A stretch of 64,000 bases of DNA from an uncultured bacterium (GTDB lineage: Bacteria; Patescibacteriota; Minisyncoccia; UBA6257; 2-01-FULL-56-20): NCBI GenBank assembly GCA_963719425.1, contig OY970382.1, forward strand, positions 586,880-650,879, in the 5' to 3' direction. Each line of letters opens with the position of its first letter. Position 1 is the stretch's first letter. The notes under the pieces are model-generated. The model saw nothing but the letters and a program-made list of their open reading frames with translations. It made no database searches and had not been told where the DNA came from. Below, piece by piece: positions 5,419 to 59,172 of the stretch. The position numbers were made by a program, and so were the translations under genes.

Positions 5419-7343
5419 TAGCGAACGTGAAGTTTCGCCTCGCGCACAAGTCCGGCCACAATCACATCCATATCCATCGTCGCCACCGCGACGAACTTGT
5501 CAGCTCCCCCGTAATACACGTAGAGCTGATGCTTCATCATAACCGCCCCGCAGGGAAATACAACATTCGGGACCACGCCCTCCTTTTCGTAAGACATCTC
5601 GGGCTCCAAGAGCGGGTCGTGCGTCCGATAAAGCACGAGAGAAGGATCTTTGGCATCAAGCAGCGCGGCGCGGATATTGTAATGGTTCGTGCGGCGCGAA
5701 ATGCCATGATAGAAAAGCAGCCATCCATATTCGGTTTCCAAGGGCGGCGAGGTGCCGCCAATTCGCTTTGAATCCCATTCGCTTGCGCGCGGCTGCATAA
5801 GAATCTTTCCGCCGAGGAATTTTGTCTCGCCGTCAAAATTCAAATCATCCACCGAATCAATCCAAATATCCGATCCAAGGCGATGCAAGAACCAATATTT
5901 CCCGGCAATCTTTTTGGGAAAGAGCGCTGCGTCTTTGTCGTCAAGGCCCAGCGGGGAGATCAAAACCGGCTTTGTCCAGTTCCATTTATGATCATCAAAA
6001 TCTCGCGCGCTAATGGAGGTGAACGCCACGCGCGGAGGGTTCTTCCCATCAAACGCGGTGTAGCACATATAGATCGTATCCTTTATTTGCGTAAGCCGCG
6101 GATCCTCGCAACCGGAATTGCTGCCCGGCATGAGCTTTTGCTCAAAACCTTCGCGTGGTGTGTAAATCGGATCCTGGAGCCGCTTTGCGATATGCACGCC
6201 ATCCACCGAGCTTGCGTATCCGATGACCGACGTATTGTCGTTGGACATCGCGCGGTAGAGAATCCGCACTTTCCCGTCCAAAAATATTGCCCCGGGGTTG
6301 AAGGTCGCCTTCGCTTCCCATGCATGCTCCTTGACCGGCGCGATGATGGGATTGCCTTCAAAACGGATGAGTTCCCGCCGTCTCGTGAAGACCAGTTGCG
6401 CCAAAAGGTCATTGAGCGGCAGCACTGCGGCACAAGAAACAGTATCTGCGGCGCCATAGTACAGGTATGCTTCCTTCTCGCGGATGAGCGCGCCTGACGG
6501 GAACACGGCATGCGGCACGCGCCCGTAGCACTCATATTCCTCTTCTGGCACAAGAAACGGCCGTTTCACCTCGCCAACGATTTTTTGGGGGTTCTTGAGA
6601 TCCAACAGCGCCGCCTGCACCCCGAAGATCGCCGGCGGCGAAAAGTAATTGTAAATATAGGAATAAAAAACGAACCAGCCGTCTTCGGTTTTTAGTGGCG
6701 CCGAGCCGACCTCCACTTGGTCCTTCTCCAAGTTTTCTTCAATGTCAATGACATGGCTTTTCCAATCGGCGTACCACGCGTTCCAATATTTTTCCGACCA
6801 AATGTCTTCAATGCGATCAAAAAGCGCAAAGCAGATCTTCGCCGGCGGCCGATCGGTGTTCACCGTAAGCATCGCCGCGATCTTGCCCTGGACACGCTCC
6901 GGAAAAAGCGCCATCGCCTTCGCGTTGAAAGGCGTCACAAGATGCTTCTCTTGTATCGTCCTGCAATCGTCGGTGATTGCGACGGCCACCTTGATGCCGT
7001 CCGCGGAAAATTCCCTGACCGCCGTGTAAAAAATATAGTGTTTTCCTTCGAACGTCGTCGCGCGGGGGTCTTCGCAGCCGTAGCGTTCCCAATCATGCTC
7101 CGGACCGAAGAGCCGCTCACGGTTCTTGAAATGAACGCCGTCCTCGCTTACCGCGTGGCCGATCACAGAAACTTCCACTTCGCGGTCTCCCATTTTTTGC
7201 CTCGCGCCCGTCGCGCGATAGAGCATGTGAATCAGGCCGCCTTCCGTGACGACGCACGGATTGTACGCGGCGACGGATTCCCACCCTGACTGCGGGTCGG
7301 GTGAAAGCACCGGATTTTCGGATAAACGCCTAACGAGCGGCAT
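5418..7343 (-). CDS. glycoside hydrolase family 130 (beta-mannoside phosphorylase family) protein with two tandem GH130 domains
   Basis: Two copies of the GH130 signature (NPxVxxxxxWE...YNPxxV...LYRA). The start was placed at MPLVRRLSENPVLSPD (ATG 7343). The ORF opens further upstream at 7583 and overlaps the preceding gene. Confidence 0.75.
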   Translation of the reverse strand: MPLVRRLSENPVLSPDPQSGWESVAAYNPCVVTEGGLIHMLYRATGARQKMGDREVEVSVIGHAVSEDGVHFKNRERLFGPEHDWERYGCEDPRATTFEGKHYIFYTAVREFSADGIKVAVAITDDCRTIQEKHLVTPFNAKAMALFPERVQGKIAAMLTVNTDRPPAKICFALFDRIEDIWSEKYWNAWYADWKSHVIDIEENLEKDQVEVGSAPLKTEDGWFVFYSYIYNYFSPPAIFGVQAALLDLKNPQKIVGEVKRPFLVPEEEYECYGRVPHAVFPSGALIREKEAYLYYGAADTVSCAAVLPLNDLLAQLVFTRRRELIRFEGNPIIAPVKEHAWEAKATFNPGAIFLDGKVRILYRAMSNDNTSVIGYASSVDGVHIAKRLQDPIYTPREGFEQKLMPGSNSGCEDPRLTQIKDTIYMCYTAFDGKNPPRVAFTSISARDFDDHKWNWTKPVLISPLGLDDKDAALFPKKIAGKYWFLHRLGSDIWIDSVDDLNFDGETKFLGGKILMQPRASEWDSKRIGGTSPPLETEYGWLLFYHGISRRTNHYNIRAALLDAKDPSLVLYRTHDPLLEPEMSYEKEGVVPNVVFPCGAVMMKHQLYVYYGGADKFVAVATMDMDVIVAGLVREAKLHVR

Positions 7344-11272: not shown

Positions 11273-11297
11273 CCCGCAGCAATGCGGGGTTTTTGTT
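11273..11297 (+). terminator. rho-independent terminator
   Basis: CCCGCA-GCAA-TGCGGG followed by GTTTTTGTT. Confidence 0.65.
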
Positions 11298-11469
11298 ATG
11301 TCCTGTTTTGCCTTTTTCGGAACCCGCTCATGACTTCGGAAAATCTAATTCGCTCCCGACGAAAATCCGCCACCCTCTCGCCTTCGGCGGGGGTCCCGGC
11401 AGATTTTCGGTTCGCTCGTTGATTTTTCTCGCCATTCCGCTAGGTTCCTCAAAACTCAAAACAGGACAT
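11298..11469. repeat. about 170-nt intergenic element bounded by a 13-bp inverted repeat (ATGTCCTGTTTTG / CAAAACAGGACAT)
   Basis: Perfect terminal inverted repeat. The interior holds GC hairpins (gccttcggcggggg). It lies between two convergent genes. Confidence 0.5.
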
Positions 11470-11509
11470 ATGCAAAATATCCCGCTTGTCTGCGATGACA
11501 ATTTAATTT

Positions 11510-13368: not shown

Positions 13369-14418
13369 ATGGAAATCGCGCTCTTCGCTATCATTATTAT
13401 CATCCTCGCCGCAATCGCCTGGCGGCTCTGGAAACCGCGGGCGGCGCAACCAAAGCAGGATAACCAGGCGCTGCTTCTTATCCAAAACCAGATCCAGGAC
13501 CAGCAAAAACAGATCCAACATCAGATGAGCGATCTTTCGCGGACGCTTGATACGCGGCTCGGCGATTCCACGAAGACCATGCTCGCACAGTCGGACAAAA
13601 GCGTGCAAATCGTAAAGGAAATCACGGGCGAGATCACGAAAGTAACCGAAGGACAAAAACAGATCGCCTCACTCGCCGACCAATTGAAAGGACTGCAGGA
13701 TATTTTGAAAAATCCGAAACAGCGCGGCGTGCTCGGAGAATATTTTTTGGAAACGGTTTTGAAGAATGTCCTTCCGCCCGGCGCCTACCAACTGCAGTAT
13801 CCCTTTGCCGATGGGACAAAAGTGGACGCTGTCATTTTCTATCAGGACCGCGTGATCCCGATTGACTCAAAGTTCAGTCTGGAAAATTACAATCGTTTTG
13901 TGGGCGCGGCCACCGACGAGGAACGCAAGCGCTACGAAGACGCCCTGCGCATGGACCTCAAAACGCGCATTGACGAAACCGCAAAATACATCAAGCCCGC
14001 CGAGGATACGCTGGACTTCGCCTTTATGTTTATCCCGTCGGAGGCGCTTTACTACGACCTCCTTGTGAACAAGATCGGCGCTGCCGCCGAACGCGACCTT
14101 ATCCAATACGCGGGCGAGAAGCGTGTCTATCCTGTTTCCCCCACCACGTTCTACGCCTACCTCCAGATGGCGCTCCAAGGAATCCGCCAAATGGAGATCA
14201 ATAAATCCGCCGAGCGAATTCGCAAAAACGTTGGCGAACTGCAACGCCACCTGGAACGTTACGAGGAGTATCTGGAAAAAATCGGTTCACACCTTTCGAC
14301 CACCACAAACGCCTACAACACCGCCTACAAAGAATTCGGAAAGATAGACAAAGACATATTAAAAATCGGCGCGAGCGCCGAGTTGGATAAAGAGGAAGAA
14401 CCGGAGAAACTGCCCTAG
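13369..14418 (+). CDS. rmuC: DNA recombination protein RmuC
   Basis: N-terminal TM helix, coiled-coil and a C-terminal RmuC-like nuclease domain (IPIDSKFSLE...FMFIPSEALY). Confidence 0.8.
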   Translation: MEIALFAIIIIILAAIAWRLWKPRAAQPKQDNQALLLIQNQIQDQQKQIQHQMSDLSRTLDTRLGDSTKTMLAQSDKSVQIVKEITGEITKVTEGQKQIASLADQLKGLQDILKNPKQRGVLGEYFLETVLKNVLPPGAYQLQYPFADGTKVDAVIFYQDRVIPIDSKFSLENYNRFVGAATDEERKRYEDALRMDLKTRIDETAKYIKPAEDTLDFAFMFIPSEALYYDLLVNKIGAAAERDLIQYAGEKRVYPVSPTTFYAYLQMALQGIRQMEINKSAERIRKNVGELQRHLERYEEYLEKIGSHLSTTTNAYNTAYKEFGKIDKDILKIGASAELDKEEEPEKLP

Positions 14419-15791: not shown

Positions 15792-17036
15792 CTACGGCGT
15801 GAAGTAGCGGATGATCTTCCTCAAACCGAACCTGGAGGATGCTCCTTCCTTGTTCCAACCTTCGCCATCCACGCCTGAGAGGACAAGGCCGAAGGCATTT
15901 ACGAATTCGGGATCCTCAAGGAACTCCTTGAAAGGGCCGCCACTTGACTCCCAGTCGTCACTGACCGAGAAGCCGATCTGCGAGGAAAGTTTCATCTCCT
16001 GTTTCGCGAGATCGGTGATGCCGGGAAGCTTCGCGCCGCCGCCCACGAGCACCGCGCCGCCGGGAAGCTCGCCGAACTTTTGGCACAATTTCAGCTCGCC
16101 GTTTACAAGGTCAAAAATCTCCTCAAGGCGCGACTCTATGATCTCGGCCGCAAAGCGCCGCGAGACGGTGTTCTTCGCTTCCGGCAAAAACTTCTTGAGC
16201 TCAATGGACTCTTTGCTGCCAACGTCTTTGGGAAACGCATAGCCGTAATGCAGTTTTATTTCCTCCGCCGCGTCCACGGGAATTTTCAATCCCACGGCAA
16301 GATCGTTGGAAATGTTCCCCGCGCCGACGGGAAACTTCGCGACGTCTACCAGTTTCCCCTCCTCATAGACCGAAAGTCCCGTTGTACCGAAACCGATGTC
16401 CACGAGCGCAGTGCCCAAGTCGCGCTGGCGTTTGGAGAGCGCCGCACGCGCGGCGACGAGCGGTCCGAAGACGAGCCCGGAAACCTCGCCGCCGCCCAGT
16501 TCCACCACGCGGATCAAATTTTTTATGTGCGGCGAGAATGCATCAATGATCAAACTTTGCACCTCCAAACGGCTGCCCGAGAGCCCCAGAGGGTCCGCAA
16601 TCTCCCCCACGCCGTCCACGACGAATTCTTTGACAAGCGTGTGGATGATCGTCCGATTTTGCGGGAGGTTGACCGCCTGCGACGCCCGCACCGCACGGTC
16701 AATATCGTCTTGGTAGATCTCCGCATCAGCGCGCGAGACCGCGACGATCCCGCGCGAGGATTGCATTTTTGCCTGCGGCGTACCGATGGAAATATAAACG
16801 TTTTTGAGCGTTGATTTGGAAACCTTCTTCGCGCCTGCGAGCGCGCGGCTCACGGCCTGTGAAACCTCGCTCATCTCCACGATGGCTCCTTTCCGCATGC
16901 CGTAGCACGGCACTTTCTGCACGTGCACGAGTGCTGGCTTCCCATTGCGCCGTTCGGCAACCGCCACCTTGATGGAAGACGTGCCGAGGTCCAAGCCCGT
17001 CACAAAATTGCCGCCCGAAAGTCCCTTGAGCTTCAT
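15792..17036 (-). CDS. ftsA: cell division protein FtsA
   Basis: Actin-like ATPase (GLDLGTSSIKVAV) located directly upstream of ftsZ. Confidence 0.9.
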   Translation of the reverse strand: MKLKGLSGGNFVTGLDLGTSSIKVAVAERRNGKPALVHVQKVPCYGMRKGAIVEMSEVSQAVSRALAGAKKVSKSTLKNVYISIGTPQAKMQSSRGIVAVSRADAEIYQDDIDRAVRASQAVNLPQNRTIIHTLVKEFVVDGVGEIADPLGLSGSRLEVQSLIIDAFSPHIKNLIRVVELGGGEVSGLVFGPLVAARAALSKRQRDLGTALVDIGFGTTGLSVYEEGKLVDVAKFPVGAGNISNDLAVGLKIPVDAAEEIKLHYGYAFPKDVGSKESIELKKFLPEAKNTVSRRFAAEIIESRLEEIFDLVNGELKLCQKFGELPGGAVLVGGGAKLPGITDLAKQEMKLSSQIGFSVSDDWESSGGPFKEFLEDPEFVNAFGLVLSGVDGEGWNKEGASSRFGLRKIIRYFTP

Positions 17037-17229: not shown

Positions 17230-17683
17230 CCTCCATAATGCTTAAAATTTTTTCTTCCAACCGTTCCATTTTGGTTGCATCAGCTCTCTTTTTGTGGTCA
17301 TAGCCCAAGAGATGCAACATGCCGTGCAGCAAAAGCGGTGCGGTGCGATCAGGACTGCGCTGCAGGATATCGCGGTTCAAGTAGATCTCGCCGAGATACC
17401 GCTTTTTGGTCTCCGGATGAGGAAAACGGAGTGGTTCCAGGAACGACAGCACGTTCGGCTCGGAACGTTTTTTCATAAATCGCCGCTTGAGCGCCCTCAT
17501 ATCGCGGCCGGGCAACAAAAAAATGTCCAGGGTCGCGTTCTGCACGCCACGATCGGGCGCGCCGAGGGTCTTCAAGATCTCTTTTGCAAAGCGGTGTATT
17601 TTTTTCTCCATCCAGGCCGTCTGCGTCATCACGGTTATTCTCGTGCCCGCCACGTCAACCAAGTTTCTTCCTCGCGATGTCAC
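17225..17683 (-). CDS. ybeY: rRNA maturation endoribonuclease YbeY
   Basis: Zinc-binding HGMLHLLGYDH motif. The start may be internal (17629 or 17611). The longest ORF overlaps the yqeY 3' end. Confidence 0.8.
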   Translation of the reverse strand: MTSRGRNLVDVAGTRITVMTQTAWMEKKIHRFAKEILKTLGAPDRGVQNATLDIFLLPGRDMRALKRRFMKKRSEPNVLSFLEPLRFPHPETKKRYLGEIYLNRDILQRSPDRTAPLLLHGMLHLLGYDHKKRADATKMERLEEKILSIMEE

Positions 17684-18399: not shown

Positions 18400-18487
18400 G
18401 GAAAATTTGATGGATAAGGTGGCCTGCACACGAATTGATTTTGCAGAACCGTGCGGAGGCCGAGCGAAAAATCCGCGAGTGAATAGG

Positions 18488-18532
18488 AAAAATGCCGGGT
18501 GCCCGGGAGCCGCGACTAGGGCGGCATTTTTT
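18488..18532. terminator. bidirectional intrinsic terminator
   Basis: AAAAATGCCG...CGGCATTTTTT. A 9-bp stem flanked by an A-run and a T-run. It lies downstream of HIT/hisS on the minus strand. Confidence 0.5.
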
Positions 18533-18600
18533 CGTTATGAGCGAGCCGGATTTTGCAAGGCCGGAAAGGGTTCTACAAAATCAATTCGTGTGCAGAAGTC

Positions 18601-21519: not shown

Positions 21520-23019
21520 TTATTGGGCATACGAAAAAGTCATGGAAAATGAAGTAGTGAGGCCGTTTGTTTGTACCTGTCCCAATGGAAGGTTGACGGA
21601 ACTGAAATGGGAATCGCTCTCGAGCGCTGTTTCAAACGCAAGTATCGCATCCTGCGTCCGCGCGCTCCCCGAGAGCGCGATAGGAGCACCCATGGACTGA
21701 AACGCAACGTGACTCACGGTCACTTGATTGCTCCCCGCGATATCCAAAATTTTTTTTAAAATGACGCCTTTGGGGCCCGCGGCGTTCAGGGCGGCGGCGA
21801 CAAGCGCCACGGAACCATTGAAATCACTTGCAGTTGCCTGCAGTGCAACAGTTTCCGCAACCTGTGCGCTGCCCAAACTAAATGAGGAGCGTGATTCAAT
21901 GGTCGTCCTCGTTTCCGAGAGGAAAATATCTGCTCCTGCGAAGGTAACGACGAGAAGCAGCAGGGCGGCAGGAAGGGCGACGCGCCAAAATCGCATGAAA
22001 CTCAGAAGCTCCTCCCCGCGGAACATATCCCGCAAATCATTTCCCAAAAGATTGATTTCCCGATCTTTCATTTTGAACCCCGACCCGCGCAAACTGCATC
22101 CGAGCGCGGTAAACCATGCCGACGAAACCGGCTGGCCCACCGTGAGCATGCAACGTACCGCGGGAACCGAGGTGCTCTCCATGATGACTCGCTCGGTCTC
22201 TGCCTCTAAAATCACGGTGGAAAAGATGACTGCATCCAAGGATCCGGCCCAGTGCTGGTAATAAAAATTTACGACGCGTCGCACGCTTGCCCCAAGCGTT
22301 TCTTCAAATTTTGGAATTGATATCTCCCTTTTATCATCCATAAGATCCTGCCATGGGACCGCGTATTCAAAATACGGCACGCCCTTACGAATAATCGCGA
22401 AATCCAATCCAGAATCATCAATATTCACAAAGAGGTAGGACTTGGCTATATCAACGCCAGCCGCCTTTTCTCGGAGCAGTCGCGCGAGCGCAGATGCCCG
22501 CGATTCCACCGCCGTTACGATGAATCCCGCTTCAAAAAGCGCTTTCGCCATCCCATCCACCACGTCGCGCTCAATGAACGCGGAGAGGATCTGAAGCTGT
22601 AATGTGTTCTCGTCGTGTTCCACAAGCTCCCAGTCCGAATATGCCTCGTCCGCCTCAAGCGGCGAAGTCATCTTGAGGTTCAGCACTACTGCCTTTTCCA
22701 AATCCTTTTCCCCCACTGCGGGGAGCGCAAATATCTGCGTATAGGTCTCCACGGAATTGAAACATGCCGCCACGTTCATTTTCCCCTTTCTTCCTTTTTC
22801 TTGCGCTTGTTCCCTAAGCGCCGTGAGCGCCGCGACAAATCCTTCGCGATCGGCGATCTTTCCTTTCTTCACTGTGCCGGGCTCAAGGCGCACCGCATGC
22901 ATCTGCCAAGCTTTCCCGTCAAAATGCACGAGCCGCACCACCTGATCGCTTACGGAAAGCCCCACAGCCGCCGAATGGACGCGAAGGAGCAAAAGTAGTT
23001 TTTGGAACCAGCGTTGCAT
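21520..23019 (-). CDS. type IV pilus assembly protein: PilM (actin-like) fused to PilN/PilO-like membrane segments
   Basis: N-terminal PilM-like ATPase fold, a central TM helix (ALPAALLLLVVTF) and a C-terminal periplasmic region. Last gene of the pilB-pilC operon. Confidence 0.65.
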   Translation of the reverse strand: MQRWFQKLLLLLRVHSAAVGLSVSDQVVRLVHFDGKAWQMHAVRLEPGTVKKGKIADREGFVAALTALREQAQEKGRKGKMNVAACFNSVETYTQIFALPAVGEKDLEKAVVLNLKMTSPLEADEAYSDWELVEHDENTLQLQILSAFIERDVVDGMAKALFEAGFIVTAVESRASALARLLREKAAGVDIAKSYLFVNIDDSGLDFAIIRKGVPYFEYAVPWQDLMDDKREISIPKFEETLGASVRRVVNFYYQHWAGSLDAVIFSTVILEAETERVIMESTSVPAVRCMLTVGQPVSSAWFTALGCSLRGSGFKMKDREINLLGNDLRDMFRGEELLSFMRFWRVALPAALLLLVVTFAGADIFLSETRTTIESRSSFSLGSAQVAETVALQATASDFNGSVALVAAALNAAGPKGVILKKILDIAGSNQVTVSHVAFQSMGAPIALSGSARTQDAILAFETALESDSHFSSVNLPLGQVQTNGLTTSFSMTFSYAQ

Positions 23020-23030
23020 AGTTTAGTGGC

Positions 23031-24236
23031 CTAGAAAGAACTCGTGAGCTGGTAGATCGGCACAATGATGGAAAGCGCGATGATCATCACCATCAATCCC
23101 ATGCCTAGGAGAAGAATGGGCTCCAAGAGCGACACGAGCGTCTGGATGCTGCTATCAATGTTCGCGCCGTAGAAGTCGGCGAGGGTGGCGAGCACCTCGT
23201 CCAAGTGCCCCGCTTTTTCCGAGATGGCGATCAGATTGCTCAATGTTTTCGGGAAAACCGCCTCGCGCTTGAATGATTCCCCGATCGTAAGGCCTTTTGC
23301 CAAACCTTCGTTCGCAACCCGCATGAGCGCATATTGATAATCGCGGTGGTTAACGGTTTCCGCCGCGACCGTGATGGTTTCAATGATGGGTAATCCCGCC
23401 TTGATGAGCGAGCTCATCGTAGAGGCCATGCGTTGCACCGCAAGGTCGCTGTAAACCTTCCGAATGACAGGGAGGTTCGCCAAGATATTATGAAGGATTC
23501 TTTTCCCCGTCTCCGTCTTTTTTGCTCCCACAATGCACACGATGATCGCCGTAATTAAAATCGTGTAGATCGGCACGACATTCGCGCCGATGAAAAGCCC
23601 GACGCCGAAGACGATGCTCGAGAAAAGGGGCGGATTGATGGCCCCGTTTGAAAATGCCACGGCGAGTTTCGGCAGCGCAAAGGTAAAGAGAAACGTAAGG
23701 ATGGCGGCCGCCATGCACAAAACGACTATTGGATAGATAAGCGCCGCGCGGATTTTGGATTTTAACTCCGCATCGCGCTCAAGCGAAACAGAAAGGTCTT
23801 CAAAGGTTTTCTGCAAGTTGCCGGAAATCTCCGCGGCTTTGACCAAGTTCACGAACGTCGATGAAAAACTCTCCGGATGCCGCGCAAACGATTCGTAGAA
23901 CGGCTGGCCGCGGCTCAAACTGTCGTACACTTCAAGGAGAAAGTTCTTGACGGAGGGCTTGTCAAAATCCGCGATGAGGATGTTCACTGCGGAAAGAAGG
24001 TCGGTGCCCACGCGCAGCATAAGCGCAAGGTATTTGGTCAAAAACACCTCGTCGGACGTGGTGATGCCTCCCCAGAACCTCGGTGCGCTGAACCGGTCGC
24101 GCGCGAGCGCCTTGACCGCGATTGGGCGGAGCTCCTTTCCTGAAAGATAATGCAGAACGTCGTCAAGGGTCCCCGCATCAAAATCGGCCTCCTGCGTCTC
24201 TCCGGAGCGGTCCACTGCGACATAATGATAGAGCAT
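23031..24236 (-). CDS. pilC: type IV pilus platform protein PilC (GspF family)
   Basis: Two GspF repeats and polytopic membrane topology. Confidence 0.9.
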   Translation of the reverse strand: MLYHYVAVDRSGETQEADFDAGTLDDVLHYLSGKELRPIAVKALARDRFSAPRFWGGITTSDEVFLTKYLALMLRVGTDLLSAVNILIADFDKPSVKNFLLEVYDSLSRGQPFYESFARHPESFSSTFVNLVKAAEISGNLQKTFEDLSVSLERDAELKSKIRAALIYPIVVLCMAAAILTFLFTFALPKLAVAFSNGAINPPLFSSIVFGVGLFIGANVVPIYTILITAIIVCIVGAKKTETGKRILHNILANLPVIRKVYSDLAVQRMASTMSSLIKAGLPIIETITVAAETVNHRDYQYALMRVANEGLAKGLTIGESFKREAVFPKTLSNLIAISEKAGHLDEVLATLADFYGANIDSSIQTLVSLLEPILLLGMGLMVMIIALSIIVPIYQLTSSF

Positions 24237-24250
24237 AATCTTATTGTACC

Positions 24251-24412
24251 AGAACCCATATCAAAAGTAGGATTCGTCTATTCCGTGTCAGTTTCGAGCG
24301 AGAAAGGTGAATCCCGACGAAGCTGTAGCCATGCCTACTGCGAGGAGGGATTCGCCTTTCGCAGCCGAAATTGGCCGGAAGAGGCGATTGATCTACTTTT
24401 GATATGGGTTCT
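24251..24412. repeat. 162-nt palindromic element closed by a perfect 20-bp inverted repeat (AGAACCCATATCAAAAGTAG / CTACTTTTGATATGGGTTCT)
   Basis: It fills the pilB-pilC intergenic spacer and its right arm overlaps the pilB stop codon. Nested inner inverted repeats include GAATCCC/GGGATTC. Confidence 0.6.
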
Positions 24413-26127
24413 CATTCGCGTATCACGCGGAGCACTTCTTCCAATGTCGTGAGCGCAAGCTCGGCTTTCTGAAGGCCATCCTCAAACATTGTCTTTTCAC
24501 CTTCTTTTCTTGTGGCGGCGCGCAGGTCTTCAAGATTGAAATTTTCCGCAGTGACGACCCTTTTCACGGCATCGGTCACGCGGAGCAACTCAAAAATGCC
24601 AAGGCGGCCGCGATACCCCGTCATTCCGCAGGAGCTGCACCCTTTTCCCCGATAAAGGGTCTTTGGCGCGGACATGGCATCTTCCGGCACGCCAAGTTCA
24701 TGCAGTTGGACCCGAACGGTCCGGGCAACATCGGGACCGGCGTCGTACGAATAGATACAGGACGGGCACACGCGCCGGACGAGACGCTGGGCGATAATGA
24801 GATTTAGCACCGATCCGGCGAGGAACGGCGGAATCTTGAGATCAAACAGACGCGGGATTGCGGTGGGGGCATCGTTCGTGTGAAGTGAAGAAAGGAAAAG
24901 ATGACCTGTCAAGGCCGCCTGGACAGCGATGTCGGCGGTTTCCGCATCGCGGATTTCGCCGACCATGATGATGTTCGGATCCTGCCGGAGGAGCGCGCGG
25001 AGTCCCGATGCGAACGTGACTCCTGCCTGTGCATTGACCTGCGTCTGGTTCACGTAGCGCATGTTGTATTCAATAGGGTCCTCAATGGTCACCACATTCA
25101 CCTGTGGCTTGTTCAGAATGTTCATAAGCGCATAGAGCGTCGTCGTTTTTCCCGAGCCAGTCGGCCCGCAAGAAAGCACCATGCCATAGGCCTTCTTGAG
25201 TTCTTCTCTCGCCACGGCGGCATCTCCGGCCGCCATGCCGATTTCTTCAAGCGAAAGGGGCTTTTGCGACGATGTGAGCACCCGCATTTCCACCTTTTCC
25301 CCGTAAAACGTGGGCATTACGGAAACGCGCACGTCGGTCAACTCGTTCCCCACCTGTTCTCTGAACCGCCCGTCTTGCGGCTCGTAGTGTTCATCAATCT
25401 TGAGGCCCGACAAAAGCTTGATGCGCGCGACGATCGCGGGATGGATGGTTTTCGAAACGTTCAACACTTCGTAGAGGATGCCGTCAATGCGGTACCGTAT
25501 GAACATTGATTCTTCCAACACTTCTATATGGATGTCCGACGCTCGCGAAGCGATCGCGTAGGAAAGGATATTGTCCACAATAGCAACGATAGGAAGATCT
25601 CCCGCTGCTTCCTCGGCGCTCTTCGCCCGCGCCGCGAGCGACGCTTTGACGTTCTCTTCGATGAGCTTTTTGAAATCCTTACCGAGCTCGTAGCCGAAAA
25701 CCGAAAAACCGCGATTGAGATCTTCCTCGGTGGCGAGGAATGGCTTGATTTTCGCTTTCAAGCGCTGCGCAAGGAATTCTATCGTTTCAAGGTTGGACGG
25801 ATCCCTCATGGCAACGTCGTACGTCCCGTCGGCTTCCTTGGCAAAGATGACAACCTGGCGCTGGCGCGCGACATCTTCCGGAATAAGTTTTACCACATCT
25901 TTTTCCACCTCCTGCGCGCTGAAATCAACGCGTGGGACGCCCAGCGCCTTCGCCACAAGGCTATTCAAATAGTCCGCAGTGGTGAACTGTTCCGAAATAA
26001 GTACATCAAGAATGTTCTGGCTCTTCCTCTCGGCTTCGGCAAAAAGCTCATCAAATTTTTCTGCCGAGACGAGCCCTTCGTCAACAAGCAGTTTCTTAAG
26101 CTCTGGCAGCGGAAGCGGTAATCGCAT
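24412..26127 (-). CDS. pilB: type IV pilus assembly ATPase PilB (GspE family)
   Basis: Walker A GPTGSGKTT, GspE N-domain and a tetracysteine motif. Confidence 0.9.
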   Translation of the reverse strand: MRLPLPLPELKKLLVDEGLVSAEKFDELFAEAERKSQNILDVLISEQFTTADYLNSLVAKALGVPRVDFSAQEVEKDVVKLIPEDVARQRQVVIFAKEADGTYDVAMRDPSNLETIEFLAQRLKAKIKPFLATEEDLNRGFSVFGYELGKDFKKLIEENVKASLAARAKSAEEAAGDLPIVAIVDNILSYAIASRASDIHIEVLEESMFIRYRIDGILYEVLNVSKTIHPAIVARIKLLSGLKIDEHYEPQDGRFREQVGNELTDVRVSVMPTFYGEKVEMRVLTSSQKPLSLEEIGMAAGDAAVAREELKKAYGMVLSCGPTGSGKTTTLYALMNILNKPQVNVVTIEDPIEYNMRYVNQTQVNAQAGVTFASGLRALLRQDPNIIMVGEIRDAETADIAVQAALTGHLFLSSLHTNDAPTAIPRLFDLKIPPFLAGSVLNLIIAQRLVRRVCPSCIYSYDAGPDVARTVRVQLHELGVPEDAMSAPKTLYRGKGCSSCGMTGYRGRLGIFELLRVTDAVKRVVTAENFNLEDLRAATRKEGEKTMFEDGLQKAELALTTLEEVLRVIRE

Positions 26128-50381: not shown

Positions 50382-50431
50382 GGTTGAGAAATGTTCTATA
50401 TGAGAAATATAACAGAAAAAACCGCAGAAAA

Positions 50432-51778
50432 CTAACTGTTTTCTTCAATCAAAATCTGCTTGTTCTTCAGCTTCAACCAACTCTTCAGGTTCACAAGCAA
50501 CTCTCGCTTCTCGGTAATGCTGCCCTCTTTGAGGAGATATTTTGCGTAGGTCTTGAAATCGATATCCTCAGCTTCTTTCTTTATCTTTTGCTCGATTTTG
50601 TCGATGCCAAACATGGCTCGTTTGAAGTGCTTATAGCGCTCAATCTCTTCCTCAAATTTCTTTTTAACGCCGATCTCATTCATATCAATCTGGTCCATAA
50701 GCTTCACGAGTTGCGCGATAAGATCCTCTTCCCGGATCGCCCCGCCCTTGCAGTGCAAATCGCGGCTCCGTGTGCAGGCATAATAGACGTAACGATGTAC
50801 GTTGCCATTCTTCTGCTTCTTGAACTTCTCATCGGCCGTGATGCCCGATCCGCACTCGGCGCATTTGATGAGCTTCGTGAAAGCGAACTCTTTTGATTCC
50901 CGCTGGATATGATCGCGCTTCAATTGTTCCTGCACTTTGTCGAAGAGATCCCGTGAGACGAGCGGCTCGTGTTTCCCGTTGTACCAGTTACCGCTTTTCT
51001 GGGGATATTCGAAGACGCCGTAATAAAAAGTGTTTTGTAAGATCACGTAGATATTTCCGAGCGATAAATGATGGTTGCTCTTCGTCCGGAAGTTCAGCTC
51101 GAATTTGAGCCAGTGGAAAAGCTTTCTCCCAGACCAGCGATCAAATGCCACTTTCTCAAACATCTTTTTGATCACAGGCGCTCGCTCGGCGTCGATGATA
51201 ACTTGGCATTTCCGCTCGGCAAGCCGCTGCGTGAGGTAGCCTGTTGGCGGGGTCGTTGGCCACAATCCCATCTCGCATCGTGCCCGCTGACCTCGCCTGA
51301 TATTCACCCCTCGGTTATCGTTCTCGAGTTTCGCCTGCGAACACAGGATCATAAGAAGGAATTTCTCATTCGGCGAATTCGAGAAATGCTGGCCATACGT
51401 CCGTATCTCGAGCAATAGTTTTTGATCCATCAGATCAACGAGCGAACCGAGGTCGCCCGCGTTCCTGCTTAACCGATCCGGCGCCCACGTGAGGATGCCG
51501 TTGAACTTGCCCATACGAAGATCATTAATCATCTCGTTGAAGATCGGCCGCTGCCCGGTCGCTTTCGCCGAGTGGCTCTCCCGCTTCATCTCCACAATCT
51601 CCAAATTCTCACGTTCTGCGATCTGAAGCATCTCCTTAATTTGCGAGTCGATGGAAAGGATCTGACGCTCCTCCGATTCAGTGCTTTTTCTTGCGTAGAG
51701 GCAGTATTTGACCTTTATGGGAATCTCCACTGTTGGCTGGATCCCGACTCCCCGGGGATCCGTTGTTTTTGCGGTCAT
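50432..51778 (-). CDS. large serine recombinase (integrase/resolvase family)
   Basis: N-terminal resolvase domain (YARKSTESEERQILSIDSQ), recombinase domain and a C-terminal zinc ribbon (CAECGS...YYAC) with coiled-coil. Confidence 0.85.
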   Translation of the reverse strand: MTAKTTDPRGVGIQPTVEIPIKVKYCLYARKSTESEERQILSIDSQIKEMLQIAERENLEIVEMKRESHSAKATGQRPIFNEMINDLRMGKFNGILTWAPDRLSRNAGDLGSLVDLMDQKLLLEIRTYGQHFSNSPNEKFLLMILCSQAKLENDNRGVNIRRGQRARCEMGLWPTTPPTGYLTQRLAERKCQVIIDAERAPVIKKMFEKVAFDRWSGRKLFHWLKFELNFRTKSNHHLSLGNIYVILQNTFYYGVFEYPQKSGNWYNGKHEPLVSRDLFDKVQEQLKRDHIQRESKEFAFTKLIKCAECGSGITADEKFKKQKNGNVHRYVYYACTRSRDLHCKGGAIREEDLIAQLVKLMDQIDMNEIGVKKKFEEEIERYKHFKRAMFGIDKIEQKIKKEAEDIDFKTYAKYLLKEGSITEKRELLVNLKSWLKLKNKQILIEENS

Positions 51779-51899
51779 ACCACAAGGGATGACGCAACGG
51801 CGGGTGGAGTCCAGGGCTCGCTACAAGGCGACGAAGAGACGAATGATGCAAGGAGCGACCAAACCATTGTTGTGCTTCTACGATTGACGGTCTCTGCGT

Positions 51900-52409
51900 G
51901 TGGGGCTTATGATTCGCGTAAACAAGATTAGTATCTATATGGCCGCTAAATCCAAAGTGGAACTCGTAAAGGAGGTCCGAAGTAAAATAGAATTTTCTAT
52001 CGTGGTGGCGATCTTCTTTTCGTCCCTGTTTTATATGGCGAGCAAAGCGAGCGGATCAAGTGATATCCAATCCAACAGCAACGGTTTGATCTGGGGCATC
52101 GCCGTCGCGGTCCACATTTTAAATTATCTCCTGATCGATCTGTTGGGCGGAGAGATAAAGAAAAACTGGTTCGCCTGGATTCGGGCGTCCCTCGTCCTTG
52201 GCATCCTCGCATTCGTTCCGGCCATTATCATCACGGTTGTGTATTACAACAAGGCCCTGCCTGTGGGATATGCCCTTACTTTTGAGGCCTCATTGATTGC
52301 GGCGCTCGCGATGCCAGTCCTGACATTTTTCCTCATCTGCGGGCACCTCGATTGGATGGCGATCAAGGGTTTCTGGAAAATGATACGTGATACATTTAGC
52401 AAGCAGTAA
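51900..52409 (+). CDS. hypothetical membrane protein (169 aa)
   Basis: Four predicted TM helices. An alternative start is at 51939. A terminator follows. Confidence 0.4.
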   Translation: MGLMIRVNKISIYMAAKSKVELVKEVRSKIEFSIVVAIFFSSLFYMASKASGSSDIQSNSNGLIWGIAVAVHILNYLLIDLLGGEIKKNWFAWIRASLVLGILAFVPAIIITVVYYNKALPVGYALTFEASLIAALAMPVLTFFLICGHLDWMAIKGFWKMIRDTFSKQ

Positions 52410-52418
52410 TCCGCAATC

Positions 52419-52450
52419 AAAAATCCTCCGTCGTGGAGGATTTTTGATTC
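52419..52450. terminator. bidirectional intrinsic terminator
   Basis: AAAAATCCTCC-gtcgt-GGAGGATTTTT. Confidence 0.6.
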
Positions 52451-52465
52451 TCATCGGTTCGGTTG

Positions 52466-53263
52466 TTACAGCTTGTATTGCGGTATATCCCCGTACTGCG
52501 GATTTCCTGCCTCAATGGCGTTTTCCGCTTGCCGTAAGTTGCTTGCCAACACCGTACAACCAACATATGAATTGGCACGCTCCGCGCTTGGCATCGTGTC
52601 GAACTCTTCCCTGATGAACGCGCAGAGGTGAATGTCGTTCTGAACCGTTGCGAGGCCGCCCCAATTGATCTTTGTATACAGCGGTCGATCCACCACGTAC
52701 GACATGAGCAAGCTGCTTGTCGAGTTGCCGTACTGGTCGGTCGTCTGTCCGTAGAAGGCGACGAGCACGTCGTAGAAGTTCGGATCAATCGGGAAGACGT
52801 TTTGGAATATCCCGGCAGCAAGTTGTCCGCTGCCAGTGATAAATGAATCTTCATTGAACGTTTCGCCCGTATTGATGTCGACCGTAACATACTCCGATCC
52901 CTTCGGCTTGTTCGAATCGTCGCTTTCGATGTTTGCATCTTTATACGATACCTGCATCGATGTTTGCTGTAGTTGCGCCTTCACCGCGTCATCCAATTTC
53001 TGTTGCGCCGTTTCCGGTACGGCAGTTTGTGCCGGTGCGGCTGCCGTCTGATTTATTGAGGGGGTAGATGCTGGCGCATTGTCCGTCGGCGTAATCGAAA
53101 CGCCGATAACAAAGAGAACGATGGTCGCAATGCCAAACGTCCAGCCAATCTTTTTTCTCGTGGCGTTGCCTTTGAAGACCTTATTAAAGTAAGGCGGCTT
53201 GATAAGCCCAACGACAAGCGCGACAAGCGACAGAAATGCTAGCACTCCGAATAATGGTCCCAT
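52466..53263 (-). CDS. hypothetical membrane-anchored protein (266 aa)
   Basis: Start chosen at MGPLFGVLAF (ATG 53263), which precedes two TM helices. The ORF track extends to a GTG at 53434. Confidence 0.4.
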   Translation of the reverse strand: MGPLFGVLAFLSLVALVVGLIKPPYFNKVFKGNATRKKIGWTFGIATIVLFVIGVSITPTDNAPASTPSINQTAAAPAQTAVPETAQQKLDDAVKAQLQQTSMQVSYKDANIESDDSNKPKGSEYVTVDINTGETFNEDSFITGSGQLAAGIFQNVFPIDPNFYDVLVAFYGQTTDQYGNSTSSLLMSYVVDRPLYTKINWGGLATVQNDIHLCAFIREEFDTMPSAERANSYVGCTVLASNLRQAENAIEAGNPQYGDIPQYKL

Positions 53264-53564
53264 GGTTTTGCTGATTTTCGTTTCGACCTTTGCGGAGCGG
53301 CCTGTTTGCCCTCCAACAACATGAATGACGCAACGGCCATGGAAGTCCAGCGTCCACGAAGGCCCAAAAACTCTGAACCCCGTGTCAGCTAGGCCTTGCG
53401 GCCCCATACCGGTTTCCCGATATGGCCCAATCACGAGTCGCTGAACGCGGGGTTCAGAATTCGTGATTGGGTCTTACGAGCCATGCCGAGCAAGACGCTT
53501 GGTTTAGACTCAGGGGCTTGCGCCCCACTATTCAGTTGTTGCCTTTATGATAGCGCTTTTAATG

Positions 53565-55365
53565 TTATTTTTTCAAGAAGTCACCTCGCGCGAAACCCTC
53601 AAAGAAATCGTCCCAGCCCCCTCCCGACGAACCGTGAGAAGACCCGCCGCCGTTCTCGTCCGACCAGCCGAGGCGCGGGGAACCGCCTCCCGACGAGAAG
53701 CGTATGCCCGACGATCCTCCACCAGAGGGTCCACCAGAATCATCGTTCCACGACGGGTTTCTCTCGTACAATCGCTCAGCCGCATCCGAGAGTATGCTAT
53801 GCAGCCGCTCGCTGTTCATTGGCCCGTCGTCAATGAGCGGCGTGAAAGAAGGACGCGAGGAAGGGCCGAGATCGATCCAATGAATGGCGGGCAACGTGCC
53901 GTCATCAACGTAGCCCTCAATGATCTGCCGGACGGCGGTCGTGAAGGCGTCGACCAGATCATCGAAGCGCTCCGTACCGAAGCCGGTGAGCTGCCGGATG
54001 AGCTCTTCGGCTCCGTAACGTGGGAATAAAACCTTTCCCGCGTAGAGGAGATCCGTGCACGACGCGAGGCGCGACCGCTTGTCCGTCGTCACGTGGATGC
54101 CCTTGACCTTGTCGTCGTGGATGCCGTCGCTTTTCAATTGGTCCACCGCCGCCTGCTGGAACTGGTTGTTCTCGATGTCGATCTCCGTGTGGCCGCGCTG
54201 TGCAAGCGTGCGATAGAGTTCCTTCATCTTTGCAATCGTGGCCGGAAAATCCATCCGGTCGTTCACGATGTTTGGTAGCACGTAGGCGGTGAATTCTTTG
54301 CCGTAGCCGGACACGAGGATCGGCACCATGGCCGTTTTATCGGCGGTTTCTTTTTGCGAAATCGCCAAGTCCGTGCCGATGTGCGTCGCGCGATAGTGCT
54401 CGATCTCAGGAAGCTCGTCGTAGTAGTGAATCATCTCATTGCGCACCACCTGATCTTCGTCGGGCACGATGTTCAAGAGGTATTCCCTCTGCCATGCAAT
54501 CTCGTTGCCGACCCGCAGGCGTTCTTTGATCACGTCCTTGATGCCCGCGTATTTGCCGGGCCAGAGTACCGTGTCGTTCTCGGCGATCAGTGGGTACCGC
54601 TTGTAGGCGCCAGAGCGCTTGCCCTCGTCAATCTCCCGGATGAGCCGCATGAGCAAAGAGTCGTCATGCAAGAGATTCCCGATCACAATAAACCGCGTGG
54701 TCTTGTCGCCCAAAGGAAAGATGTCGCGCGTCACCCATTCGTAGGTGGCGTTTCTCGTTTCCTGCGTGCGCACGCTCGCAACATCCTCACAGTCGTCCAA
54801 AATGCAGAGGTCGGGCCGGAACGCGCCGTGTTTGATACCGCGCACGCTCTGCTCGGCGCTCGCCGCCGTGATCCTCGCGTTGTAATTCGGGATCACGAGC
54901 GAGAAGGAATTCCAGTCGTCCTCCTCGCGGAAGGGACCGAGGTCGTTCCTCAAAAGCGGATTGCCGTCCAGCTGGTCCTTGATGTTCCGGAGGTACTGCT
55001 TCGCCTGCGCGAGCGTCTTCCCGAAGATGACGACGTGTTTTTTCTTCTGCTTGCCCGTGACAGCCCAGATTGGATAAAGCTCCGCGAATAGGGTCGTCTT
55101 GCCGCTGCCCCCTGAACGCCATAACAATGGCAAGGTCGGCCGAGTCCGACTCTATGATCTGGTGCATTTCGTAGTGCATGGGCGCGGGCGCGTAGGTCAT
55201 CCGGTCCGGGAAGTAGCACGGCACGAACCAGCTGAAGCTCTGGCCCGTGACGGCGACCCGAAAGTCACGGTCAACGAGCATCCGCTCCAGTATCTTCTTG
55301 ATCTCATCCGCGTTTCCGGCTCCGTACGCCGGTATATTACTATTGTTGTTTTGATTCTGTTCCAT
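53565..55365 (-). pseudogene. phage terminase large subunit (TerL), interrupted by a +1 frameshift in a G5 homopolymer
   Basis: N-terminal 95 aa sit in one frame (ORF 54787..55365, ...LAIVMAFRG). The ATPase and nuclease domains sit in the next frame (Walker A RSGGSGKTT, Walker B DLCILDD, nuclease GTDLAIS...). The frames join at AGGGGGCAG near 55107-55113, where AGGGGCAGC would give ...FRGSGKTT. Confidence 0.65.
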
Positions 55366-55828
55366 TTTGATTGTTGTTATCGGTTAATTTATTTTGACTG
55401 TCTTTTTCCTCACCGGAACCGACTGCTCCCGGCGGGGACTTGCCCGCAAGAAAAGGAGCGTTGATCAAAGCTCGCTCCACCGCCGCCTGGAATTCCGCGT
55501 TCTCCTCCGGCGTCATGGCGTCGCGCTTGACGTGGGCCGTAATCTCTATGCGGTCGCGGAACTTGGGGTTCCTGGCCTTGAGCCAAAAGGAAATCGCGGG
55601 CCAATGCTTGTCCTTTATTAACGAAATGAGCTGGCTTTCGCTCAAGTCGTTCATAAAGGCGTCCCCTTGGTTCATTGCTTCAACAACCGCCTTGTCGAAT
55701 TCCTTGTCCGCTTTGCGCCAGCGGTCGATCGACATCCTCGAGACGTTCACCTTCTCGCAGCAAACCTCAATGATCGGCACGCGCCGCAGGTGGTCAAGGA
55801 ACGCTTCCCGCACCCTGTCTTTTTTCAT
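55340..55828 (-). CDS. phage terminase small subunit-like HTH protein
   Basis: N-terminal HTH (VREAFLDHLRRVPIIEVCCEKVNVSRMSIDRWRK) located immediately upstream of TerL. Confidence 0.45.
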   Translation of the reverse strand: MKKDRVREAFLDHLRRVPIIEVCCEKVNVSRMSIDRWRKADKEFDKAVVEAMNQGDAFMNDLSESQLISLIKDKHWPAISFWLKARNPKFRDRIEITAHVKRDAMTPEENAEFQAAVERALINAPFLAGKSPPGAVGSGEEKDSQNKLTDNNNQNGTESKQQ

Positions 55829-56593
55829 TTACGTGATGCGGCGAGGTGTGAGGCCGAACAACTTCTCCATGCGGGTCAAAATCGTCTGGCAATACTCCTC
55901 GTCGCGTTCTATTAACACGCTCGACCTTTTGACCTGTTCGGCGGCGACGGCCGTCGTGCCGGAACCGGCACAACAGTCGTACACCGCGTCTCCAATAGCC
56001 GTGGAATTGAGGATGAGCCGCCGCACGAGGCCGACGGGCTTCATTGTGGGGTGAAGCGGGCTCTTCGCCGGTTTTGGGAACCAGAGCACCGACTTGTCCT
56101 TCGCCTTGCGGAATTCGTGCTTGCCATACCAGCCGTAGGCGATGAGTTCGAACTGCGGGAGGTAATCCTTGCGTCCTATCACCGCATTGTTTTTGAGCCA
56201 CAGAAGGAGCTGGGAGAAATGGATGCCCGCCCGCTGCATTCCTTCGCGCAGGGCGAAGATCATGAAGTCGCTGTTGAAAACGTAGAAAGCATTCTTGGTC
56301 GCGAGATGCGGCAGGACGGGCATGATCCAGTCCTTCGTAAACTGCACATACTCGGACTCGCTCGTAATGTCGTCGTTCCAGACCTTCTTCGGCTTTCTGA
56401 TTTTGGAAAATCCCTCTTTGGATTCCACGATCCTAACTCCGTAAGGGGGATCGACTATCACGGCGCGTATTTTTGCGTTGCCGATTACGCGATCCACGAA
56501 CTTGGCGTCGCGAGCATCGCCGCACCCGAGCACGTGGTTGCCGATCCGGAAAATATCGCCGCACGCTATTTTGTTGATGGGAGATTTTTTCAT
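55829..56593 (-). CDS. DNA methyltransferase (N6-adenine/N4-cytosine, DPPY family)
   Basis: IVDPPYG motif IV and C-terminal AdoMet motif I (DCCAGSGTT). Confidence 0.85.
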   Translation of the reverse strand: MKKSPINKIACGDIFRIGNHVLGCGDARDAKFVDRVIGNAKIRAVIVDPPYGVRIVESKEGFSKIRKPKKVWNDDITSESEYVQFTKDWIMPVLPHLATKNAFYVFNSDFMIFALREGMQRAGIHFSQLLLWLKNNAVIGRKDYLPQFELIAYGWYGKHEFRKAKDKSVLWFPKPAKSPLHPTMKPVGLVRRLILNSTAIGDAVYDCCAGSGTTAVAAEQVKRSSVLIERDEEYCQTILTRMEKLFGLTPRRIT

Positions 56594-56598
56594 GAGGG

Positions 56599-57861: not shown

Positions 57862-57871
57862 GTTTTATTGA

Positions 57872-58111
57872 TTAATGCTTTGGGGTAAGGCAGCGACCGA
57901 CATCGCGCCAGAATGATGGCTCAGTTTGCCAATGTTCCAAGACGGGCACGGCAACGCCGAGCGATTGAGCGAATGCCTTCAGGGCACTGGGCGTTTTTTC
58001 CCTCATTGCGGCATACCACTCTGCGAACGCAAGACGCTTGCGCGGGTCGCGATTCTCGAGCACAAGGAGCGCGTTCCCGGGATTGTTTGATGTTTGAGGT
58101 TTATTTTTCAT
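57872..58111 (-). CDS. hypothetical protein (about 80 aa)
   Basis: The ORF opens at 58180 and an internal ATG at 58111 is preferred. No motif. Confidence 0.3.
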   Translation of the reverse strand: MKNKPQTSNNPGNALLVLENRDPRKRLAFAEWYAAMREKTPSALKAFAQSLGVAVPVLEHWQTEPSFWRDVGRCLTPKH

Positions 58112-58265
58112 TGATGCGATAAAAGTGTTCTCTGGCCTTTTTCTTTTAATGGAAACATCCCACCCCACTCCCTCGTCCAATCCATTTTTTATGAGAAATA
58201 CAACAAAAAATGCCGACTTTTCGGCATTTCACTTTTCGCTATCCACTGGAGAGGGCGAGGGAGTC

Positions 58266-59078: not shown

Positions 59079-59172
59079 TGCAAGCTAATGGTAATTCACC
59101 TGTTTCGCTCGAGCAAATTGGTATAGCGAATCACGGCCTGAGAACCAAAGATCTACGCCACGAGGTAGGGGT

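Follow-up and report, generated by a model that had tools for sequence, protein, structure and literature searches.

A candidate mobile hairpin repeat in the pilB–pilC spacer of a Patescibacteria genome

Why does a long palindrome separate two neighbouring genes of a type IV pilus operon? In the 64,000-nt stretch of Patescibacteria DNA analysed here (the window), assigned to Paceibacterota/Minisyncoccia from its PilB homologues, the minus strand carries a pseudopilin gene, pilB, pilC, and a PilM-like gene, which together make up a type IV pilus block. The spacer between pilB and pilC is 175 nt long, and 162 nt of it is taken up by a single palindromic element, designated C (Table 1). The original prediction had offered four roles for this element: an attenuator, a processing site that sets pilB:pilC stoichiometry, a protein-binding RNA, or an inserted MITE. 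The reading preferred here, with a probability of about 0.68, is close to the fourth: element C is a copy of a previously undescribed, non-coding, hairpin-forming mobile repeat family of Patescibacteria, around 160–180 nt in length and of the same general kind as MITEs and the ERIC, Correia, and REP elements.

The palindrome and its flanking genes

Element C was found where it had been placed, with the perfect 20-bp closing stem attributed to it. Its terminal arms are AGAACCCATATCAAAAGTAG and CTACTTTTGATATGGGTTCT; a search of the 64 kb that allowed up to three mismatches returned these two sites only, with none expected from 100 shuffles. The overlap claimed between the right arm and the pilB stop codon is also present and amounts to exactly one base (24412), the stop being the UGA at 24414–24412. 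The nested inverted repeats reported in the interior fared unevenly: GAATCCC/GGGATTC does lie inside a 27-nt arm pair of 78% complementarity, but GCCGAAATTGGC forms no independent palindrome and pairs with the left arm in predicted folds of the element. Because of this pairing, the predicted fold is one continuous rod-like hairpin, and not the large multi-hairpin structure that had been envisaged on the pilB–pilC mRNA.

The minimum free energy (MFE) of the element is −79 kcal/mol for the mRNA (minus) strand (z = −8.0; equalled by none of 200 shuffles) and −99.1 kcal/mol for the plus strand (z = −11.8); with DNA parameters, the corresponding values are −41.6 and −51.9 kcal/mol. A 200-nt sliding scan places the lowest plus-strand energy of the window at element C, with only a further palindrome, element D, being comparable. 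The plus strand, antisense to pilB and pilC, corresponds to what is here called the top strand of the C family, the strand whose internal loops are rich in purines. The sole open reading frame across the element (24150..24452, plus strand) is likewise antisense to both genes and has no Pfam match; at 162 nt and non-coding, the element lies within the MITE size range (below about 500 bp).

Table 1. Coordinates of the palindromes, their parts, and the flanking pil genes in the window
Feature	Position	Strand	Remarks
Palindromic element C	24251..24412	+	162 nt; scores 189 (R1) and 170 (R2) bits with the covariance models
Left arm, perfect 20-bp terminal inverted repeat	24251..24270		First two bases (24251–24252) align with the relatives' empty site
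Right arm, perfect 20-bp terminal inverted repeat	24393..24412		Last five bases, GTTCT (24408–24412), align with the empty site
Extra sequence relative to the L001-type empty site	24253..24407		155 nt; boundary ambiguous by 1 nt; no target-site duplication
TTTCGAGCGAGAAA, internal-loop segment	24292..24305	+	Identical in C and C2
CGACGAAG, 5′ half of internal loop	24315..24322	+	Invariant in 5/5 full-length members
GAGGAG, 3′ half of the CGACGAAG internal loop	24342..24347	+	Invariant in 5/5 full-length members
GCAGCCGAAA, 3′ partner segment	24361..24370	+	Identical in the window copy, C2, and L052
pilB, T2SSE/MshEN ATPase, 571 aa	24412..26127	−	Pfam T2SSE 1e-118, MshEN; upstream of element C
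pilC, T2SSF platform protein, 401 aa	23031..24236	−	Pfam T2SSF 8e-46; downstream of element C
TGGTACAAT, extended −10-like box	24243..24251	−	In the window and L001, 6 nt ahead of pilC (ATG in the window); element C directly 5′
Element A, rod-like palindrome, family A/B	11290..11477	−	Homologous to B, nhmmer E = 5.6e-8
Element B, rod-like palindrome, family A/B	18424..18595	+	HIT-S21 spacer
Element D, Y-shaped palindrome, third family	32153..32300		G+C-rich; no Rfam match

No terminator-like site was detected on either strand between 23900 and 24800, and no U-tract follows the stem of element C; the sequence that comes after the stem on the mRNA strand, GGUACAAUAAGAUU, is not that of an intrinsic terminator or attenuator. 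Neither a tRNA nor a tmRNA occurs at the site. Between the element and pilC lies an extended −10-like box. A −10-like hexamer (TACAAT, TATACT, or TATCAT) also precedes pilC in relatives that lack element C, sitting 6–14 nt before the gene in the more distant L007–L009, and three of four such relatives (L007 and L009 included) have also retained the TG extension. This retention suggests that pilC may have its own internal, possibly leaderless, promoter, which the insertion of element C would have spared.

Filled and empty sites in related pil loci

In the sister lineage L001–L006 (six contigs; PilB 93% identical), the pilB–pilC spacer measures 19 nt and presents a clean empty site. Absence from a close relative with a collinear junction, which the original prediction had linked to a selfish MITE, is thus what was found in the L001-type lineage. 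On the sense strand, the empty site reads ...CGCGAGTAGAACC|TGGTACAATAAAAGTATG, and the window reads ...CGCGAATGAGAACC[155 nt]TGGTACAATAAGATTATG. An orthologous copy of element C is present at pilB–pilC in L113, an 898,885-bp contig whose PilB is 94% identical. Among outgroups with PilB 56%–77% identical, the spacers are mostly short (1–33 nt in L007–L011 and 18–55 nt in L119–L121; mostly 1–55 nt where PilB is 65%–77% identical), and element C was not found in about 75 other Patescibacteria pilB–pilC junctions, most of which have spacers below around 40 nt. The element-free spacers range mostly from −1 to 55 nt, with the longer ones containing unrelated sequence; those of L012 and L013 (PilB about 64% identical), for example, span 118–125 nt and are filled by an unrelated hairpin. 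Genomes that are around 91%–93% identical in their pil genes differ in the presence or absence of C-family copies. A conserved pilB–pilC cis-regulatory RNA would be present at the orthologous position across related pil loci, in one orientation; the C family departs from this on both counts, and on the junctions compared element C is neither conserved among pil loci nor a conserved pilus regulator.

Long hairpins of other kinds are found at this junction in several genomes. In L012, L013, L016, L019, L028, and L040 the spacer is 110–170 nt and each is filled by a long hairpin of its own; in sequence these are unrelated to element C, and for most of them the sense strand gives the better fold.

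Two insertions of the C family can be compared between filled and empty sites: element C itself and a paralogue, C2, in the pilC–pilM spacer of L113. At C there is no direct repeat (the boundary being ambiguous by 1 nt), and at C2 there is a possible 3-nt ACC repeat. Neither site thus provides a clear target-site duplication of the MITE type, and one standard MITE hallmark is therefore missing. The upstream flanks are already present in the empty sites, as AGAACC after the pilB stop and as TAGACC (which includes the pilC stop), and for this reason the outermost 'perfect' stem is half native; AGAACC and TAGACC are complementary to the inserted far ends, GGTTC and GGTCTA, respectively. The target at C, TAGAACC^T, resembles that at C2, TAGACC^G/A, and from these two sites insertion seems to favour targets that mimic the terminus of the element itself. 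The anatomy seen at the pair would result equally from a choice of targets that mimic the terminus and from template switching primed by microhomology. In the palindrome families A/B and B′/E1, the cores are homologous and the outermost perfect stems are copy-specific, which suggests that palindrome stems can grow into their flanks; template switching may account for this extension.

The orthologues of element C in the window (24251–24412) and in L113 (11716–11877) are identical at 156 of 162 positions (96.3%, with 3.7% differing). Third codon positions, compared between the same two genomes, are 79% identical in pilB and 84% in pilC (binomial P about 7e-9). A recombination tract around the element was considered as the cause of this high identity and rejected, as the 300-nt flanks are only 90%–92% identical. 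The three lineages lie near a trichotomy at the pil locus and carry a mosaic signal, with 244, 165, and 157 informative sites for the respective groupings. An identity of 96.3% is not expected of a neutrally decaying insertion, and it would mean that the element is strongly constrained throughout or that it arrived well after the lineages split; in the latter case, the route would be site-specific insertion or short-patch exchange.

Dispersed copies and a covarying fold

Dispersed identical copies had been named as the mark of a MITE. Dispersed copies do exist, in L113, L063, and L052, but they are diverged and not identical. The closest paralogue, C2, matches element C at 122 of 166 positions (73%; nhmmer E = 3e-20) and lies in the opposite orientation relative to the pil operon; the corresponding 11-nt pilC–pilM spacer is empty in the window and in the L001-type lineage. 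The arms of C and C2 agree at 15 of 20 positions, and the two elements thus share terminal inverted repeats, as MITEs do. A covariance model, R1, built from three sequences only (element C, its L113 orthologue, and C2), recovered a full-length copy at L063:12836–13001 (40 bits, E about 1e-6), where pilC and a pseudopilin gene flank it, and, with filters off, a further full-length copy at L052:2330–2513 (44 bits), between mraY and tpiA. L063 and L052 belong to distant Patescibacteria, with PilB 43% identical. A second model, R2, matched a 76-nt internally deleted copy with unchanged termini at L063:1617–1692, and a solo right arm came up in a pattern search, at about L063:17478–17506. Within L063, GAGGTCATYTGARAAYTC occurs at four arms, and at a fifth with two mismatches, against 0.05 expected.

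Known copies are few: two in 43 kb of L113, two plus the solo arm in 22 kb of L063, and one within the 64-kb window of the source genome (from a contig of 887,956 bp); the IF-2-centred loci of sister genomes contain none. All copies seen are intergenic, and both sites that could be compared across lineages (C and C2) are insertion-polymorphic. Relative to its neighbouring genes, the top strand runs antisense at three independent sites and sense at two. Type IV pilus operons house four of the six independent sites, which is not significant, as the loci sampled centre on pilB. The family thus displays the size, terminal repeats, polymorphism, and deletion derivatives of palindromic repeats. The absence of element C from a close lineage, together with paralogous and deleted copies elsewhere and in either orientation, supports the fourth of the original proposals, an inserted MITE.

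Covariation had been proposed as a check on the fold, and it is strong. Across the five full-length members, 41 of the 67 stem pairs have changed on both sides, in compensatory fashion; the mean for shuffled alignments is 18.9, with none of 500 reaching 41, and the maximum in slid controls is 17. Across these members 87% of cells are paired, where the slid controls do not exceed 47%. Embedded in the covarying rod is an invariant internal loop formed by CGACGAAG and GAGGAG, which could be drawn as two tandem G·A/A·G mismatches around one C–G pair. The segments GCAGCCGAAA and TTTCGAGCGAGAAA are kept in most members of the family, the L113 orthologue having GTAGCCGAAA in place of GCAGCCGAAA, with one base different. 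Covarying stems around an invariant loop fit selection on a folded single strand, be it DNA or RNA, and palindromic mobile elements recognised as hairpins would give a covariation pattern identical to that of structured RNAs.

The two strands are not equivalent in their predicted folding. In six of six copies tested (families C and A/B), the top strand folds 8–22 kcal/mol better than the bottom strand, and purine–purine mismatches concentrate on the top strand. G·U counts in arm-to-arm alignments have no consistent strand bias; a G·U strand preference was accordingly dropped as evidence for RNA, the MFE differences being consistent and the G·U counts not, and for this reason the better folding of the top strand is not taken as evidence for an RNA either.

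A different repeat, CATTGCGAGGAGC...GCGACGAAGCAATC, occurs in three other Patescibacteria loci (L031:~5781, L034:~104, and L047:~1201); it contains both purine motifs of the C-family core loop, differently arranged.

Database searches gave element C no known identity. Rfam 15 holds no family that matches it: the best hit of a permissive search, mir-9447, reached only 20.8 bits (E = 0.4), where the gathering score is 67, and is a generic hairpin match. A search of the whole window at gathering thresholds returned tRNAs and the LOOT RNA only, and permissive searches around elements A, B, and D returned nothing. The exact 18-mer arm has 22 single-arm hits in JGI metagenomes and four in IMG/VR, all chance matches without wider similarity; a gapped pattern of the core gave one hit in IMG/VR, which failed the covariance model, and BLAST against phage and plasmid records found no match to element C. 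A literature search found no description of such palindromic repeats in Patescibacteria.

Known repeat families and competing explanations

The Correia elements (NEMIS) of Neisseria are among the characterised repeats closest to element C. They are non-coding repeats of around 100–160 bp with terminal inverted repeats of about 26 bp, are often found between co-transcribed genes, and are polymorphic among strains; RNase III cuts their long RNA hairpins at the terminal repeats, changing the expression of neighbouring genes (PMC10969869). More generally, comparable repeats in Neisseria and Yersinia expose RNase E sites or undergo RNase III cleavage, with changes in neighbouring expression (PMC10969869). 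Element C resembles Correia elements in size, in being non-coding, in its terminal inverted repeats, in its position between two genes of an operon, in its polymorphism, and in its long (here predicted) RNA hairpin. Correia elements, however, duplicate a TA target and exist in hundreds of near-identical copies, whereas the C family has no target duplication seen, few copies, and 73% identity between paralogues; moreover, element C forms a rod with conserved internal loops over its full length and not at its ends alone. The ERIC elements are imperfect palindromes over their full length of around 127 bp, intergenic, transcribed within operons, and able to affect mRNA decay (PMC10969869). They share with element C the whole-element palindrome, the intergenic location, the occurrence in either orientation, and a presence that varies among related species, but they belong to another phylum, have no sequence similarity to it, and keep a strong consensus, where the C family keeps a structure and one loop while its stems diverge. 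The ~150-bp Rickettsia palindromic elements (RPEs) have spread in the reduced genome of a host-dependent bacterium (PMC10969869); unlike the C-family copies seen, which are all intergenic, RPEs often lie in frame inside genes and encode peptide segments.

The hairpins of REP/BIME elements, which are associated with RAYT (Y1 HUH) enzymes, and those of the IS200/IS605-derived PATEs are conserved through compensatory changes and not in sequence, and these elements insert beside a short specific sequence with no target duplication. In both respects—compensatory conservation of the hairpin and insertion without a clear target duplication—the C family seems similar, and recognition as folded single-stranded DNA would, by analogy, explain its conserved loop and covarying stems. 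REPs, however, are 20–40 nt long, have a GTAG head, and number in the hundreds, and IS200/IS605 ends carry subterminal hairpins; element C is a 162-nt full-length palindrome, and the sequence read contains no Y1 transposase gene. A strict REP/RAYT identity was rejected on this length, on the absence of a Y1 transposase gene, and on the inner-arm GTAG, which is not kept (C2 has ATAG).

In the preferred reading, element C would have entered the pilB–pilC spacer right after the pilB stop, directly upstream of the pilC −10-like box, adding 155 nt with no target duplication. A putative trans-acting enzyme would recognise the hairpin and the conserved loop, as single-stranded DNA or as RNA, and move or copy the element, with copies decaying into internally deleted forms and solo arms. 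No transposase or partner enzyme is evident in the window or in the related loci, and none adjoins any C-family copy. When transcribed in the operon, element C would fold into a hairpin of −79 kcal/mol whose outer 20 bp pair perfectly; if it behaves as Correia and ERIC elements do, this hairpin could be a substrate for RNase III or shift the pilB:pilC mRNA ratio. Any such effect on pilB:pilC expression would probably be a by-product and not the reason for the element's existence. A more elaborate form of this reading, which we consider quite unlikely, joins terminus-mimicking insertion, a double tandem-G·A protein-binding loop, and a pil-operon preference that tunes expression into one mobile module. 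If this were true, a hairpin-guided or microhomology-primed mechanism, hitherto undescribed, would operate in bacteria with tiny genomes, the high identity of the C orthologues would reflect recent horizontal spread or function, and the machinery being tuned would be the pili used for episymbiont attachment and DNA uptake.

The covariation is also what would be seen if the family were a mobile or multi-copy gene for a structured non-coding RNA, in which the top-strand RNA is functional—possibly through a k-turn-like protein-binding loop—and spread is secondary. The 41 compensatory pairs and invariant loops persist across genomes whose PilB is only 43% identical, the top strand folds better in every copy tested, and the C orthologues are far more conserved than synonymous sites. 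Hairpin-recognised DNA palindromes would, however, covary equally, and the G·U counts are without strand bias. The mixed orientation of the top strand (antisense at three sites and sense at two) means that host transcription would yield it inconsistently, and no promoter-like or terminator-like signals flank it at element C. Since internally deleted copies and a solo arm also persist, and near-identical lineages differ in presence and absence, such an RNA gene is considered unlikely, though worth weighing. The other roles first proposed would make the element a cis-regulatory RNA that evolved within the type IV pilus operon—as attenuator, RNase processing site, or stability element—to set the pilB:pilC ratio, and this is very unlikely. 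The exact position between pilB and pilC and the hairpin in the read-through transcript speak for it, as do members in the pilC–pilM (L113) and pilC–pseudopilin (L063) spacers and the unrelated long hairpins in pilB–pilC spacers of several other Patescibacteria. Yet the sister lineage and all outgroups have the junction without the element, the pil-operon copies differ in orientation, no U-tract comes after the stem of element C, one member sits between mraY and tpiA and another upstream of unrelated genes, and the association with pil genes is confounded, every related locus having been fetched through pilB. As evolved functions, the attenuator, the stoichiometry-setting processing site, and a dedicated protein-binding RNA of the pil operon are all left unsupported, given some 75 junctions without the element, the want of a U-tract terminator, and the lack of an Rfam family.

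That the palindrome might simply have been generated in place, by a fold-back or template-switch duplication of the spacer and with neither mobility nor function, is a highly improbable explanation. It would account for the perfect outer stem, the missing target duplication, one end being native flank and the other its inverted copy, and the copy-specific outermost extensions in families A/B and B′/E1; the 155 extra bases, however, have no source in the empty-site sequence, and homologous copies with conserved asymmetric internal loops occur at unrelated sites in distant genomes, so that as a full explanation it is contradicted by the paralogues. Barely conceivable is a guide-RNA-type module of an RNA-guided system, for example a TIGR stem-loop unit or a bridge RNA of the IS110 type. 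TIGR-Tas systems do occur in Patescibacteria, and some use palindromic stem-loop units with box C/D-like internal-loop motifs (PMC12045711), which recalls the purine-rich internal loops on the rod of element C. By the definition of these systems (tandem units, box C/D-like motifs, and a Nop-domain Tas gene; PMC12045711), the comparison fails: the copies are single and dispersed, and the neighbouring genes are pilB, pilC, and pilM, with no tandem array, no RUGAUGA/CUGA boxes, no Nop domain among the window ORFs scanned, and no Tas gene next to any copy. The bridge-RNA form was rejected in the same way, there being no arrays and no IS110-type recombinase adjoining any copy.

Element C is one of four long palindromes, in three families (C, A/B, and D), within the 64 kb. 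Patescibacteria genomes are smaller than 1 Mb and are usually called streamlined; that four such palindromes lie in this window, one of them inside a core pilus operon, would mean that selfish or semi-selfish hairpin repeats are active in them. Recognition of the C family also keeps spacers of this kind from being annotated as operon-specific riboswitches or attenuators, and its covariance model is usable across Patescibacteria genomes. Populations with the insertion (the window and L113 types) and without it (the L001 type, for example JGI 3300038418) provide a natural comparison for the effect of a 160-nt pilB–pilC hairpin on pilus gene dosage, and the mechanistic question raised is how an element comes to move that duplicates no target and inserts beside a copy of its own end.

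Families A/B and C have no homology, being unlinked by nhmmer and by the covariance models, and a single family uniting them was rejected; the outermost stem extensions of A and B are not homologous to each other either. GGTTC/GAACC was likewise discarded as a universal bracket of all the palindrome families, as it is enriched but missing in some copies. Element B has an orthologue at L113:17659–17825 that is 88% identical, with compensatory stem changes, and the neighbour gene of element A has no close orthologue in the sister genomes. Element D immediately precedes the promoter-like region of an LCAT-domain gene (1400 aa); homologues occur in a sister genome (L116:21343–21492; L116/L118) and in a more distant one (L010:9182–9291 and 21600–21712), and the family has compensatory changes in one inner stem.

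Other loci hold further palindromes. The HIT-S21 spacer, occupied by B in the window and in L113, contains an unrelated Y-shaped palindrome, B′, in the L001 lineage (L001:17346–17505). The B′ stem is 28 bp and perfect, and the core recurs at L113:812–977 with a wholly different 31-bp perfect outer stem. L020 carries a palindromic repeat of around 110 nt in three copies (6513–6620, 16749–16897, and 17533–17663) and a rod of about 220 nt in two (13732–13952 and 14047–14273), all within 18 kb. Because L020 carries several copies, multi-copy hairpin repeats appear to be common in Patescibacteria. Two more palindromes are probably not repeats: that at L024:18573–18724 resembles, by eye, a 5S rRNA in a long processing stem, and that at L008:135–289 is bracketed, again by eye, by sequences resembling tRNA T-arms. 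Elsewhere in the window, a prophage-like block at about 50400–59100 contains a serine recombinase gene (50432–51778), two N6/N4 DNA methylase genes, and a LOOT RNA (Rfam RF03000; 53391–53510, minus strand; 73 bits against a gathering score of 46), which adjoins a terminase large-subunit gene.
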